In this document: positions 1 to 39,256 of the stretch, piece by piece
Numbering within the stretch: the first letter of the stretch is position 1
Layout of the letters: the number at the start of each line of letters is the position of its first letter
Source: Patescibacteria group bacterium
GTDB taxonomy: Bacteria; Patescibacteriota; Patescibacteriia; UBA1558; GWA2-36-10
Assembly (NCBI GenBank): GCA_018819405.1
Contig: JAHJQF010000001.1
Span: 665,676-729,675 of the forward strand
Reading direction: 5' to 3'
DNA length: 64,000 nt
Translations under genes and position numbers: made by a program
The notes under the pieces: generated by a model
Database searches by the model: none
The model's input: the letters and a program-made list of their open reading frames with translations, nothing else
Told to the model about the DNA's origin: nothing

Positions 1-2
1 AT

Positions 3-704
3 GAGACTGCCAACTGGCAGAAGGCCAGGGACATGGCGGCCATGCTCTCTGGTGGATGGCACCAGATTATCTCGGCCGGCAGTAATGGTATTGCCTCGGC
101 GGCGGCAGCTGGTGTGCGGCAGATTCATCAGGTGCCTGTGCCTGGTCAGTTTTCTCACCTCAGGGTGCTCACTGACATCGGGGACTCATCCAACTACTTC
201 CCCTCAGAATCCAACGAGAACGACTACTTCGGCAACCTGAGCAAACTGGTTATGTGTCCCGACATCTGGGTCTTCTTTCCTGGACAGGATGGTACGGCCC
301 AGCAGCTGACTTCTGTGCTGCATCTGTTGCGTAAGGGCGTATTGTCCTTGCACTACAAGTGGATTGTTATGATGGACTCGGAAAATCCTCTGATCAACTG
401 GGGTACTGCCTTTCTCAAGATGCGTGATTCCAAGATCAGCTGGATCGTGACCGATGACATTGGTCGCATTGAGGAGCTGATCGACGATATCGAGTTTCGG
501 GCGATGGATCTCATTGTCCGTGTCTGGCAGGACTCTCAGCTTGATGGTGTCATGACCAGCCGGGAGCTTCGGCAGCAGGTGATGATGGCCGATCCTCGGA
601 TGGGCTACGATCTCTGTGAACGGATGATCAACAAGGCCGCCAGTTACGGCGACATCAAGATCACCGACAAGAGACACGTCAAGTCGTGGCTCAGCATCAG
701 CTAG
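3..704 (+). CDS. Hypothetical protein in a GC-rich island. The reading frame is open to the window start, so the gene may be 5'-truncated.
   Basis: A 223-aa ORF (33..704) with its frame open back to nt 3. It ends immediately before a plus-strand hairpin followed by a T-run (705-770). The antisense ORF 204..677 is judged spurious. No family was recognised. Confidence 0.4.
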   Translation, partial: ETANWQKARDMAAMLSGGWHQIISAGSNGIASAAAAGVRQIHQVPVPGQFSHLRVLTDIGDSSNYFPSESNENDYFGNLSKLVMCPDIWVFFPGQDGTAQQLTSVLHLLRKGVLSLHYKWIVMMDSENPLINWGTAFLKMRDSKISWIVTDDIGRIEELIDDIEFRAMDLIVRVWQDSQLDGVMTSRELRQQVMMADPRMGYDLCERMINKAASYGDIKITDKRHVKSWLSIS

Positions 705-770
705 AGCCGCTGTGTCGGGGCCTCAACACACTACTGCGTGTGTCGGGGCCCTTTTTTATCTTGAGGACTT
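705..770 (+). terminator. Intrinsic terminator. Two copies of GTGTCGGGGCC form a GC stem followed by TTTTTT.
   Basis: The sequence reads gtgtcggggcctcaacacactactgcgtgtgtcggggcccttttttat. Confidence 0.5.
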
Positions 771-776
771 TGATTT

Positions 777-805
777 TTGACAAAAAATGTGATTTATTTT
801 AAGAT
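777..805 (+). promoter_or_regulatory. Sigma-70-like promoter, TTGACA-N17-TAAGAT, for the operon of three small genes.
   Basis: TTGACA lies at 777-782, a 17-nt spacer follows, and TAAGAT lies at 800-805. This is about 55 nt upstream of the SD-bearing start at 862. Confidence 0.4.
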
Positions 806-861
806 AGCAAGCTAATTGTTCCCTTTGTCATGAGTCCACAAATCCGACATGGAGGTGTAAA

Positions 862-1185
862 ATGGTGTCTTACAAAGTCAAGCTACAACACGGCAAAATT
901 ACAGCAGTTGAGTTCTGGGAAGAAGGGCTCAGAGCCAGGTTTTGCAAGATCATGATTGAGAAGCTCTCAGAAACACGCTATTACACTACTACCAACTGGC
1001 TTGGTCGTGGTCAGGGTGGTCTGAATGTGACCAAGAGCTTGGCCAAGGCCTTGGCTGGCTTGCCTGAGGACTTTCAGTCCAAGGTGGAGAGGGCTTTTCA
1101 GATGGAAAGCCTCACGCCAGCAGACATCTGGCATATCTTTCCTGGTGCTGAGGTGATTACCCCTATCAAAAAAGTAAGGAGCTAG
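862..1185 (+). CDS. Hypothetical small protein of 107 aa; first gene of a three-gene mini-operon in a GC-rich island.
   Basis: An SD of the form ggaggtgtaaaATGg precedes it. The next ORF starts 2 nt after its stop. No family was recognised. Confidence 0.4.
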   Translation: MVSYKVKLQHGKITAVEFWEEGLRARFCKIMIEKLSETRYYTTTNWLGRGQGGLNVTKSLAKALAGLPEDFQSKVERAFQMESLTPADIWHIFPGAEVITPIKKVRS

Positions 1186-1187
1186 TC

Positions 1188-1397
1188 ATGTCAGACATGG
1201 AGAAGCTAAAAGCCAAGATCATGGAGCTGGTCAGAGAAGGTGGTGTTAGCCATCGTTATACCCGCGATTTTCTAGTGGGACAGGTCGCTTGGCATGAACA
1301 TGTCAGCTACAAAGTGGCTGACGCGGCCTTTGGGCAGCTGGTCAGAGAAGGTGTCATCGCCTTTGGCGGTGAAGAAAGCATGGTTGTCATAGTCTAG
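1188..1397 (+). CDS. Hypothetical small protein, 69 aa.
   Basis: An SD of the form aaggagctagtcATG precedes it. It is tightly coupled to the flanking ORFs. Confidence 0.4.
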   Translation: MSDMEKLKAKIMELVREGGVSHRYTRDFLVGQVAWHEHVSYKVADAAFGQLVREGVIAFGGEESMVVIV

Positions 1398-37231: not shown

Positions 37232-37331
37232 TGAATCCCGTTAGAAATTCACGGGATATTGTGTATAAATAAAGATAGTGTAGTATATATTTCTTGTATG
37301 TTTTATGAAGTAAATTTCTAACGGGATGAAA
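37232..37331 (+). repeat. Stop/start-bridging inverted-repeat element, copy C. The 5' arm TGAATCCCGTTAGAAATTC lies 1 nt after the mreB-paralog stop TAA. The 3' arm AAATTTCTAACGGG ATG AAA contains the glycosyltransferase start.
   Basis: The stem is 15 bp and the loop is 61 nt. The loop contains a TGtagTATATAT extended -10-like motif and a 7-codon mini-ORF (ATGTTTTATGAAGTAAATTTCTAA) that ends at the arm TAA. Confidence 0.75.
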
Positions 37332-38429
37332 ACGATAGGATTAGAGGCAACCAGAGCGGACAAAAAATACAAAACTGGTACAGAGTGGTATGCTTGGCAT
37401 TTATTAAATCAATTCAAAAAACTAGATAAAGAAAATAAATTTTTTGTCTATTATAATCAAAACCTTGCCGGTGATCTTATGGATGCACCGGAAAATTTTT
37501 ATTTTAAACAACTTAAATGGCCATTTTCAAAATTTTGGACTCACTTACGTCTTGGTTTTGAGCTGATTATTCACCCGGTGGAAAAGTTTTTTGCCTCCAA
37601 TGCAGTACCTATCATGGGTCGAGGTGAGATAATTGTGACAATTCATGATTTGGGGTTTTTGAAAAATCCTGATTTATATCATCCTTTGGAAAGATGGTAT
37701 CAGAAATGGTCACACAATATCGCTGTCAAAAGATCCAAAAAGATAATAACTATATCCAATGCCACAAAGCAGGATATTATAAAGTATTATCCTCAAGCTA
37801 AAGATAAAATAAAAGTTATCTATCTTGGTTGGGATAGTTCAGAGTTTGGCCCTATCTCAAGAGAGGATAAGTTAGGATATGTTGACGAGCATGATCATCC
37901 GGAAAAGTACATACTTTATACTGGCCGGATTGAGACTAAAAAAAATGTCCAAAATCTTATACGAGCATATCGTATGGGCAATTTCAAATGGCCTCTTATG
38001 TTGGCTGGCCGGCCGGGTAATTTTGGCTATCAAGAAATCCAAAATATGATAAAAGACACCAAGATAAAAAATGACGTAATAATTCTTGGTTATGTTAGTC
38101 AAAAAAATTATACCAAGCTGATTGCTAGTGCTAGTATGTTTGTCTTTCCCTCCAAATTTGAAGGCTTTGGATTGCCGATTTTGGAGGCAATGGCTTCTGG
38201 AGTGCCGGTTGTGTGTTCAGATATGCCTGTTTTACACGAGGTGGCAGGTGAAGCAGCTGTTTATTTTGATCCTGATAATCCACAAGATATTAAAGATAAA
38301 ATGACTCAGGTGTATCAGGAAGAAAGATTACGAGAAATATTAATAGCTAAAGGTTTGAAAAGAGCTGGGAATTTTTCTTGGCAAAAATGTGCCCAAGAAA
38401 CACTAGACTATATTTTAGATAAGTCTTGA
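37326..38429 (+). CDS. Family-4 (group 1) glycosyltransferase.
   Basis: The C-terminal motif EGFGLPILEAMASGVPVVCSD matches family-4 (retaining, GT-B) glycosyltransferases. Confidence 0.8.
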   Translation: MKTIGLEATRADKKYKTGTEWYAWHLLNQFKKLDKENKFFVYYNQNLAGDLMDAPENFYFKQLKWPFSKFWTHLRLGFELIIHPVEKFFASNAVPIMGRGEIIVTIHDLGFLKNPDLYHPLERWYQKWSHNIAVKRSKKIITISNATKQDIIKYYPQAKDKIKVIYLGWDSSEFGPISREDKLGYVDEHDHPEKYILYTGRIETKKNVQNLIRAYRMGNFKWPLMLAGRPGNFGYQEIQNMIKDTKIKNDVIILGYVSQKNYTKLIASASMFVFPSKFEGFGLPILEAMASGVPVVCSDMPVLHEVAGEAAVYFDPDNPQDIKDKMTQVYQEERLREILIAKGLKRAGNFSWQKCAQETLDYILDKS

Positions 38430-38453
38430 CAAAAATAGTAAAATTTGGTATAT
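38425..38453 (+). promoter_or_regulatory. Consensus sigma-70 promoter, TTGACA-N17-TATATA, for the RNase P RNA gene.
   Basis: The sequence is TTGACAaaaatagtaaaatttggTATATA. The RNA 5' end (P1 helix) begins about 10 nt downstream. Confidence 0.6.
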
Positions 38454-38463
38454 ACATAACATA

Positions 38464-38962
38464 GGCTTAAAAACCAAGGTAATCGCCGTGAACCACTCGC
38501 TTTGCTCGGGTACACGGCTCACGCCGCGTAGAGTAAAAGGGCTTGCCCTGATACCCGAACGGAGTGAGTGGTTCAGGGAGGAAAGTCCGAACACCATAAA
38601 AAAGTTAGTTGGTAACGCCAACCGATTGTAAGGGTGACTTTACAGTTAGAACAAGTGCAACAGAAAGTAAACCGCCCTGAGCATTGTGAGGGGTAAGGGT
38701 GAAAATGTGAGGTAAGAGCTCACGCGTTAGTGTGGTGACACATTAAAAGAGGTAAACTTTTAGCTGGTGAAAGGTCAAATAGGCTCTGAAAAGAGCGGGT
38801 AGACTGCTTGAGTCTATAGGCGACTATAGACCTAGATAGATGATTACCGGCGTAAAACTCACTTCGTTCGCCACGCGGCACGCCATGGATATATTGCACG
38901 CGTGACGTGACGAGCGAAGCGAGTTTTACGTCACAGAATTCGGCTTATTAGGTTTTTAAGCC
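38464..38962 (+). ncRNA. rnpB: RNase P RNA (bacterial type A), about 500 nt with extra helices.
   Basis: The P1 helix pairs ggcttaaaaacc (38464-38475) with ggtttttaagcc (38951-38962). The universal motifs GGGAGGAAAGTCCGAACACC, ACAGAAAGTAAACCGCC, AGGGTGAAA..GGTAAGAGC, GGGTAGACTGCTTGAG and ACAGAATTCGGCTTA are present. A T-run and a hairpin terminator follow at 38978-39008. Confidence 0.9.
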
Positions 38963-39009
38963 TTTTTTATTTTGACTCGTTGGAGATTATTCTCCAACGG
39001 GTTTTGTGT

Positions 39010-39172
39010 AAAAAAAGAAGGGGACTGTTCTAAAACAGTCCCCGGCCACTCTTCTTGCCCTTGGTAGGCATGATTTGTGGCTTGGCTAATGCCCAGATGA
39101 TCCGGGCAAGTAGCCGCCAGACAGTGAGGCAGTACTCGATGGGGAAGAGGATGATTTCACTTCTTTATTTAG
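39010..39172 (-). ncRNA. Candidate GC-rich small RNA (about 160 nt, unknown family) with a perfect promoter and intrinsic terminator, located inside the polysaccharide gene cluster.
   Basis: A minus-strand promoter TTGACA-N17-TATAAT lies at 39180-39208. A minus-strand terminator ggggactgttttagaacagtcccc plus ttcttttttt lies at 39010-39043. The interval is about 55% GC and has nested stems (cttgccc..gggcaag, ggcat..atgcc). There is no ORF longer than 13 codons. Confidence 0.4.
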
Positions 39173-39256
39173 ACATATCATTATAGCATATTTTTAGTAA
39201 ATTGTCAATATATATTTATTTACTAAATAAAGCCTAAATGTTATAGTATCTATACT

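Follow-up and report, generated by a model that had tools for sequence, protein, structure and literature searches.

How short GC-rich segments led by Shine-Dalgarno (SD) sequences come to stand in an AT-rich genome whose genes otherwise start without them is the question raised by a 64,000-nucleotide stretch of contig JAHJQF010000001.1 (hereafter the window; GC content 36.3%), which belongs to a Parcubacteria-type Patescibacteria genome of ~1.04 Mb, that of a tiny bacterium of groundwater type. Four protein-coding islands interrupt the core genes of the window. On balance they are probably flexible genomic islands of higher-GC, SD-using ancestry in which the SDs are still functional, and as such they add one more case to a type of feature already familiar.

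Composition and initiation signals of islands and core

Blocks of 43-60% GC lie at 1-1900, ~8900-10470, 13200-13620 and 14400-17900 of the GC profile, against a background of 26-40%, and four protein-coding islands were delimited (1-1760, ~8880-10525, 13190-13660 and ~14330-18015). Island 1 extends ~155 nt upstream of the window, as seen at 2620-4530 of L001, a Logan contig of the same genome from run SRR6514730 that reaches upstream of the window. A preliminary description had placed the four coding blocks essentially here, while its fifth GC-rich segment, 39010-39172, is not a coding island but a candidate small RNA. Composition, the check that this description had named, sets the islands apart in the way characteristic of horizontal islands. 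The GC content at third codon positions (GC3) is 0.290 ± 0.031 in the 51 backbone genes (range 0.22-0.36) and 0.44-0.79 in all 14 island open reading frames (ORFs), corresponding to z scores of 4.7-15.8 relative to the backbone, and the distance of the dinucleotide signature from the backbone (x1000) is 121-184 for the islands compared with 49 ± 13 (max 76) for size-matched backbone pieces. GC is raised at all three codon positions in the protein-coding islands. The shift extends to amino acid usage, as GC-high ORFs pooled over the window and its relatives have a GARP fraction of 0.25 vs 0.19 and contain 4% instead of 9% K.

Initiation signals follow the same division. With a strong SD defined as a sequence upstream of the start that pairs with the anti-SD at -6 kcal/mol or stronger, 9 of the 13 island genes scored (out of 14) carry one, compared with only 4 of the 51 genes of the backbone (Mann-Whitney p = 6e-6), a rate equal to the 7% seen among random 22-mers taken from the backbone. 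If any alternative start within the first 40 codons is permitted, the proportions become 75% in the islands and 24% in the backbone, the latter showing no excess over the expectation from ~3 candidate starts per gene. The earlier statement that backbone genes start without a recognisable SD is thus borne out, and that of an SD in every GC-rich segment agrees with most genes of the coding islands but not with 39010-39172, the ORFs of which have none. A crude ORF caller applied to relatives and 42 other contigs gave a trend between SD and GC in the same direction, which is weak and noisy (50% vs 11%, and 38% vs 13%, p = 0.02). Island ORFs also lie more often on the minus strand (8/14 vs 3/51; p = 4e-5). 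Genes of the backbone are often coupled, with 15 of 40 same-strand junctions measuring 5 nt or less or overlapping.

A TAnnnT hexamer ends 5-9 nt ahead of the start codon in 12 of 22 operon-first core genes, compared with 14% of random positions. On account of this closeness to the starts, leaderless mRNAs are proposed for the first genes of core operons, and the pattern suggests that leaderless transcripts are common in the SD-less core. Examples of such -10-like hexamers are found at the core first genes 4033, 39257, 52149 and 58516.

Promoters do not separate the two classes, because stable-RNA genes of the backbone share the consensus. Promoters of the type TTGACA-N17 also serve the backbone tRNA-Gln (13711) and the RNase P RNA (38427), and near-consensus promoters lie upstream of pyrG and of the gene at 18148. 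The textbook promoters noted earlier for the GC-rich segments are therefore present in the islands but not specific to them, and it is SD and composition alone that discriminate islands from backbone.

Variable slots and the origin of the islands

GC steps at the island borders are abrupt (15-25 points), as would be expected if GC-rich pieces of another organism had been joined into an AT-rich contig by chimeric assembly or contamination, the alternative that the preliminary description had wanted excluded. The Logan assembly of SRR6514730, though, matches islands 1-3 and all of their junctions at 100% identity, and the island proteins are also encoded on a JGI 847-kb contig and on NCBI/ENA 1.035-Mb contigs (NCBI records MBU1203057.1 and MBU1203075.1, "Patescibacteria group bacterium"). 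The island borders coincide with promoters or terminators, the intergenic DNA at the borders is AT-rich and host-like, and the same kind of mosaic occurs at the same loci, with different sequences, in eight independent metagenome-assembled genomes (MAGs) of other studies and in four short metagenome contigs. Chimeric assembly is excluded, with practically no probability left to it, and the islands are genuine. Sharp GC mosaics in Patescibacteria MAGs can thus be real and need not be trimmed as contamination.

The eight MAGs (L002-L009) hold the closest loci in a search with pyrG (83-90% identical) and are assigned to Patescibacteria, Parcubacteria or Komeilibacteria; together with the metagenome contigs, the loci fetched total 2.2 Mb. 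The gene order PEGA(-)-murA-ctpA-rplI-pyrG is kept in all eight, at 53-90% amino acid identity, and the islands occupy two slots, one between lexA and the PEGA gene and one between pyrG and the gene of a 535-aa membrane protein (at 18148 in the window), around tRNA-Gln. Flanks are conserved and content differs between relatives, as is typical of horizontal islands. At the lexA-PEGA slot every relative holds at least one GC-elevated gene beside PEGA (42-63% GC vs 27-36% in AT-rich neighbours), mostly with a GGAG-type SD and with identities that vary by species. In L004-L007 and L009 they make up a GC-rich block of their own (45-63% GC), and in L002, L003 and L008 they are single genes (42-51% GC). 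Among the contents are a HPRT (L004, L006, L007 and L008), a 93-aa protein (L005 and L006), a 42%-identical homologue of the SLOG-like gene of the window (L007) and other ORFs (L002, L003 and L009).

Downstream of pyrG, L002 has only ~1.6 kb with one AT-rich gene, tRNA-Gln, one further gene and the orthologue of the 535-aa gene, and no GC-rich segment. L005 instead has a large GC-rich region with orthologues of island 4, a c-di-GMP-II riboswitch and tRNA-Gln, while L007 and L008 carry an AT-rich block that is phage-like by ORF reading only. The four short metagenome contigs (L082-L084 and L206) also hold the island-4 cassette, with either tRNA-Gln or AT-rich sequence at its flanks. Islands 3 and 4 both adjoin tRNA-Gln, as do orthologous cassettes, including those of L005 and L083; in L002 this tRNA gene marks the site that has no island. 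The island slots are therefore hot spots across the lineage, hypervariable within the family; the preliminary description had overlooked both these and the sharing of island 4, still GC-rich, by several divergent genomes.

Relatives carry other mobile or variable elements downstream of pyrG, the ORFs of which were read from translations only. In L007 (12800-18300) and L008 (13300-17300), the AT-rich block includes ParB-nuclease-like and terminase-like ORFs. In L004 (15900-20100), a reverse-transcriptase-like ORF and a small four-helix-type ORF lie beside a gene of 62% GC, and the same region carries a LOOT RNA (RF03000).

Simple vertical descent of the island between lexA and PEGA had at first seemed plausible, since pairwise identities of the HPRTs looked congruent with the species, and was given up after a database search and a neighbour-joining tree, the latter with long branches and not decisive. 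For the slot HPRTs of L004 and L006, identity is 50-61% with enzymes of Firmicutes, Rubrobacter and Bacteroidota and only 41-44% with the slot HPRTs of L007 and L008. Because they are at least as near to other phyla as to their counterparts in the same slot, replacement at a hot spot appears to fit the history of HPRT better than descent does.

Homologues of island proteins are very rare. The beta-propeller of island 4 belongs to a family of 7 proteins in 5.8 billion, with orthologues of 46-51% identity in L005, L082-L084 and L206, all of them in mosaic contexts. For the SLOG-like protein of island 1 there are 13 relatives in 1.84 billion representatives, and a word search returned the protein alone. 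Two more distant relatives of the beta-propeller lie on uniformly GC-rich contigs: P0006 (40% identity) on one of 65% GC, where a neighbouring gene has a GC3 of 0.95, and P0007 (25% identity) on one of 68% GC. These two contigs are the only candidates for donor-type organisms. In aquifer Patescibacteria, hundreds of genomic islands have been described and most inferred transfers were within the phylum (PMC12455944). The gene pool of the islands may likewise lie in other Patescibacteria, or alternatively in high-GC neighbours or hosts.

Under the preferred reading, core genes would be initiated independently of SD pairing, at AU-rich unstructured starts, on leaderless transcripts, or by termination-reinitiation where stop and start codons overlap or abut. 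An island cassette is by comparison an insulated unit that combines a consensus sigma-70 promoter, a GGAGG-type SD in the 5' untranslated region (UTR) and, at its end, an intrinsic terminator; having their own strong promoter and terminator, island genes would be expressed independently of the surrounding operons. The cargo consists of secreted, lipoprotein, membrane, small putative DNA-binding and receiver-domain proteins of very rare families, with one operon predicted to be gated by tandem c-di-GMP-II riboswitches. In four genomes all island-4 orthologues have kept an upstream SD motif at protein identities of only 27-51%, and because these motifs were retained while the surrounding sequence diverged the island SDs are taken to be used. 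The resident ribosome would then still be able to use SDs, and dependence on them is probably needed, as GC-rich 5' regions would be unable to use the unstructured AU-rich route.

Several results weigh against this reading. The 3' end of 16S rRNA was found neither in the window nor in the 2.2 Mb of fetched loci, and an anti-SD motif was detected in only 48% of Parcubacteria 16S genes (Tsurumaki et al., PMC9297842). Among the island proteins scanned, no integrase, transposase or conjugation gene was matched in Pfam, PHROG or NCBIfam (a few short ORFs were not in every library), no clear att sites bound the islands, and no phage, plasmid or defence-system matches were obtained for them. Given the rarity of homologues, the donors would have to be essentially unsampled. 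The strongest tension lies in island 4, for which 14428-16805 of the window was compared with L005 15881-18280, L082 1269-3659, L083 1916-4306 and L206 803-2008. Across the five genomes, GC3 is 0.77-0.88 in the 107-aa secreted protein, 0.47-0.56 in the beta-propeller and 0.51-0.61 in the lipoprotein, whereas adjoining core genes have 0.31-0.36. As the orthologous proteins are only 30-51% identical, compared with 53-86% for core proteins of the same genome pairs, silent sites should be saturated. On these comparisons, neither passive decay of foreign DNA nor a simple model of recent transfer explains the gene-specific GC3. Island 4 has either been inherited vertically with its GC kept high, or been imported repeatedly into the same neighbourhood from donors absent from the databases. 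The backbone itself departs from the Lawrence-Ochman regressions on which the codon-position amelioration test relies. Gene-specific conservation of GC3 is relevant to the question of whether these genomes undergo compositional amelioration.

This conservation speaks for another account, which is rather unlikely: that the GC-rich, SD-led cassettes are a maintained second gene class of old vertical residents at fixed sites, kept by selection on mRNA structure or stability, by conditional SD-dependent translation, or by GC-biased gene conversion at recombination hot spots, with two translation-initiation regimes in one cell as a consequence. The gene order of island 4 is the same beside tRNA-Gln or AT-rich flanks in all six sequences that hold it (the window, L005, L082-L084 and L206), its SDs are conserved, all close members of the beta-propeller family sit in mosaic contexts, and the lexA-PEGA slot of every relative holds a GC-elevated, mostly SD-led gene. 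Yet sister species differ in slot contents, with L002 lacking islands on the pyrG side altogether, the HPRT tree is incongruent with the species, and islands 1-3 have no or almost no orthologues. Highly expressed core genes show no preference in GC3, and GC3-high ORFs number only 13 of ~400 in the 42 other AT-rich contigs of related organisms. Gene conversion, moreover, does not predict a GC3 of 0.47 and 0.79 for neighbours within one cassette. The more specific proposition that high silent-site GC and SDs of fixed-slot cassettes are actively maintained in the long term in this Parcubacteria family, beside an AT-rich core translated without SD pairing and hence with two gene classes per cell, is judged unlikely. 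If it were true, maintenance could serve the conditional, c-di-GMP-gated expression of surface or host-interaction proteins, and the islands would not be passively decaying.

Very unlikely as a general explanation is that GC-richness stems from the function of the sequences themselves, as structured RNAs and very highly expressed small genes, rather than from foreign DNA. This possibility had been raised in the preliminary description, and for RNAs it proved correct: the GC-richness of tRNA-Gln, the RNase P RNA, both riboswitch aptamers and the candidate small RNA is explained by structure. For proteins it finds no support, as highly expressed core genes, including those of the ribosomal proteins L9 and L27, RRF (frr) and GreA (greA), are AT-rich and SD-less. 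The protein-coding islands are furthermore raised in GC at three codon positions with different amino acid usage, and sister species live without the island genes. Horizontal acquisition from a higher-GC, SD-using donor, as had also been proposed earlier, agrees with the variable slots, the GC-type amino acids and the relatives of 65-68% GC, whereas the simple, recent form of that proposal does not agree with the GC3 of island 4.

Specific vehicles for such an acquisition were considered and rejected. A prophage or plasmid origin found only two weak, non-hallmark matches in PHROGs, and the searches of viral_contigs and by blastn against phage and plasmid records were empty. A defence island would require more than the sub-threshold VapC-like match in NCBIfam, PADLOC giving no match. 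An integron-like array is contradicted by the promoter and terminator of each cassette, and neither attC nor an integrase was found. The only candidate scar is a duplication of the 3' end of tRNA-Gln, a 45-bp direct repeat (13824-13868 and 13917-13961, 98% identical) that starts in the last 10 nt of the tRNA gene, encloses 48 bp and brackets no island. It resembles an attachment-site scar, as would be left after the loss of an integrated element.

Flexible or hypervariable islands are known from other streamlined genomes, adjacent to tRNA genes in Prochlorococcus and as hypervariable regions in SAR11. The genome studied here resembles these in its small size, in a conserved syntenic core with a few fixed slots (one of them adjacent to a tRNA gene) that vary between close species, and in surface or accessory cargo of unassigned function and atypical composition. 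It differs in that the islands lie 15-25 GC points above the host, instead of being AT-richer or similar, measure only 0.4-3.6 kb, have no integrase that was found and use a different initiation signal from the core, and in that one cassette is GC-rich across several species. SD-poor bacteria that keep SDs for a minority of genes are likewise known, with the initiation of Bacteroidota of the Flavobacterium type as the example. SD-less, AU-rich core starts next to a small set of strong-SD genes are common to this type, to Parcubacteria poor in anti-SD (PMC9297842) and to the present genome, in which the SD-bearing minority is a compositionally foreign accessory set and not one of ribosomal or autoregulated core genes. 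With an SD-less core and conserved SD-led accessory genes in one genome, the locus would be a test bed for the claim of Tsurumaki et al. that many Parcubacteria lack the anti-SD, the alternatives being an anti-SD that only a minority of genes uses or a different role for the conserved GGAGG motifs. The cassettes are also plausible determinants of host or surface interaction in a group with almost no functional data.

Gene content of the islands and neighbouring features

The features of the window are collected in Table 1. The start of the first gene of island 1, with its SD (AAAGGAG) and a TTGACA promoter, lies 39-155 nt upstream of the window (L001 2620-2738), and matches of its product to SLOG cluster4 and DprA-like families are weak. 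No significant Pfam, PHROG, PADLOC or NCBIfam match was obtained for the three small ORFs downstream. Among the island proteins as a whole, PADLOC gave no match, NCBIfam none that was significant, and no phage hallmark family was seen. The AT-rich promoter segments of the islands are mutually similar (repeat family D2) and are the sole repeat common to the cassettes.

Table 1 Islands, structured RNAs, inverted-repeat elements and backbone blocks of the window.
Feature	Position	Strand	Description
Island 1, gene 1	1..704	+	3' 223 codons of a 247-aa SLOG/DprA-like protein; GC3 0.71
Island 1, operon	777..1745	+	promoter TTGACA-17-TAAGAT (777-805); three small ORFs; terminator hairpin 1701-1745
Island 1, operon ORFs	862-1185, 1188-1397, 1409-1618	+	107, 69 and 69 aa; GGAGG-type SD each (energies -13.1, -7.4, -12.0); GC3 0.51-0.58
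Backbone block	1931..8833		PEGA-domain protein (-), murA, ctpA, rplI, pyrG, conserved in all relatives, plus AT-rich accessory ORF 1931-2578; SD-less; GC3 0.22-0.34
Island 2	8880..10525	-	three transcription units between pyrG and LCP gene; GC3 0.44-0.68
Island 2, unit 1		-	promoter near 10514-10485; frameshifted Cys-rich ORF 10142-10434
Island 2, unit 2		-	promoter 10093-10066; 80-aa ORF 9765-10007, SD AAGGAG
Island 2, unit 3		-	promoter 9675-9647 (TTGACA-17-TATAGT); membrane ORFs 9361-9597 and 8977-9360; terminator 8935-8904
Island 3	13190..13660	+	one gene 13301-13609; terminator 13628-13657; GC3 0.72
tRNA-Gln(UUG)	13760..13833	+	own promoter TTGACA-17-TATTAT, 13711-13739; anchor of the variable region
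Island 4a	14330..15660	+	promoter TTGACA-17-TATAGT (14339-14367); SD GGGAGG; 393-aa secreted 6-bladed beta-propeller (14428-15609); terminator 15627-15654
Island 4b	15662..16921	-	promoter near 16912-16884; 219-aa lipoprotein (16146-16805) and 107-aa secreted protein (15735-16058), SD energies -8.2 and -8.5, GC3 0.51 and 0.79; terminator near 15700-15662
Island 4c	16925..18015	-	promoter 18015-17987; tandem c-di-GMP-II aptamers; SD GGAGG; 137-aa receiver-domain protein (17162-17575), weak Response_reg match; terminator near 16975-16925
c-di-GMP-II riboswitch (RF01786)	17651-17758	-	59.7 bits, gathering threshold 53.5; 5' UTR of receiver-domain gene
Second c-di-GMP-II aptamer	17841-17969	-	46.8 bits, below threshold, E = 4e-9
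Miniature inverted-repeat element, four copies	18069-18148, 22148-22219, 37236-37326, 42913-42983		all in AT-rich core
Backbone housekeeping block	18148..38429	+	AT-rich, SD-less, co-directional, often coupled; SpoU methylase, PfkB kinase, PduL-type phosphotransacylase, ackA, recJ, RNase H, holB, frr, rseP, class II aaRS, mreB, mreC, PBP2, greA, second mreB, GT4
RNase P RNA class A	38534..38963	+	Rfam 187 bits; promoter TTGACA-N17-TATATA 38427-38455
Candidate small RNA	39008..39207	-	promoter TTGACA-17-TATAAT (39207-39179); transcript ~170 nt; terminator 39043-39012

Island 2 has no homologues in any fetched locus. Its Cys-rich ORF is split into frames of 64 and 46 aa at a C5 run (10262-10266; five G on the coding strand), and both frames are also found on the Logan contig at 100% protein identity; the split ORF is either a pseudogene or the result of a homopolymer error or slip. 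The protein of island 3, which likewise lacks homologues among the fetched loci, has a signal peptide and then four repeats of 20 aa, GDPIDGNDxPMRSATTxSVA, encoded by tandem 60-bp repeats that are 92-94% identical. The gene could be the precursor of a secreted repeat peptide.

Rfam and ARAGORN identified two tRNA-Gln genes, the RNase P RNA and a c-di-GMP-II riboswitch in the window. The two aptamers of island 4c stand in tandem in one 5' UTR before a stand-alone receiver-domain gene, and ligand binding is predicted for them. L005 has a single c-di-GMP-II aptamer ahead of the lipoprotein gene, and a Response_reg gene takes the equivalent place in the L082 cassette. The candidate small RNA has a minimum free energy of -65.2 kcal/mol compared with -41.8 ± 4.2 for shuffles (z = -5.5); 39008-39178 matches no significant Rfam family, and the unit contains no credible ORF, only ORFs of 43 aa or less without SD. 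Further core genes of the window encode a LCP-family protein, a ROK kinase and an AdoMet decarboxylase.

A miniature inverted-repeat element between stop and start codons

A short repeated element of the AT-rich core may be more novel than the islands. In four core genes that are unrelated to one another (ackA, two for GT4 glycosyltransferases and the one for the 535-aa membrane protein), the 12-mer ATTTCTAACGGG stands before the start codon, with an inverted partner 45-65 nt upstream. The element measures 70-90 bp, with ends of 14 bp (YCCCGTTAGAAATT...AATTTCTAACGGGR) that are flanked by a duplicated 4-bp target, TRAA, and is positioned exactly between the stop codon of the upstream gene and the start codon of the downstream gene. 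An empty site is seen in L002 (18145-18148), where the PduL-like gene runs into ackA through an uninterrupted ATGA overlap; this junction in the window reads TGAA-C[arm...arm]G-TGAA. Judged by its terminal inverted repeats, target duplication, small non-coding body, many copies and empty site, the element is a miniature inverted-repeat transposable element (MITE), and one that rebuilds both codons at insertion. The left TRAA duplicate keeps the upstream stop codon, and the terminal purine together with the right duplicate remakes an ATG or GTG start codon.

A scan of metagenome contigs for exact arms placed the MITE in at least 120 contigs (L086-L205) with a GC content of 0.30-0.53. Among the matches listed, Watson-Crick pairing extends to the base just outside the arms in 115 of 118 MITEs, an identical 4-nt direct repeat flanks 65 of 118 (13 expected), and an ATG or GTG directly after the 3' arm opens an ORF of at least 60 codons in 65 of 120. 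The flanks of these matches are TGAA, TAAA and rarely TGAG, and the G-type and A-type are never mixed. In the case of a prepilin and of MetK, the expected N-termini start exactly at the codon that follows the 3' arm. This arm of the MITE puts a TAATTT 8 nt before the start. No copy was found in the loci of the eight relatives or in viral contigs, and no Rfam family corresponds to it. A search of the 2.2 Mb for an autonomous partner returned arm pairs 0.4-3.5 kb apart that enclose ordinary genes (pilin, metK, ychF, glycosyltransferases).

Reading the element as a purely structural device, a hairpin coupling stop and start, was superseded by transposition in view of the 4-nt direct repeats on its flanks and of the site in L002 that lacks it. 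Perhaps an RNA hairpin would still rejoin the stop and start codons, although this is speculative. Bacterial miniature inverted-repeat elements are known from the Correia and REPIN types. The MITE is like these in being short and non-coding, with terminal inverted repeats, a target duplication and many intergenic copies, in the possibility of a long RNA hairpin and in supplying promoter-like sequence beside genes. It is unlike them in its TRAA duplication, in insertion exactly in ATGA-type overlaps or at start codons with both codons rebuilt, in a poorly conserved interior and in that no autonomous partner was found.

Directly before the ATG of the PEGA gene, at 3874-3890 (-), stands a sequence like half a copy of the element, AATTTCTATACGGG, where relatives have AATTTATAACAAG at the orthologous start. 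Two readings fit: a likeness between the end of the element and native start contexts, or the decay of a solo end at this place.

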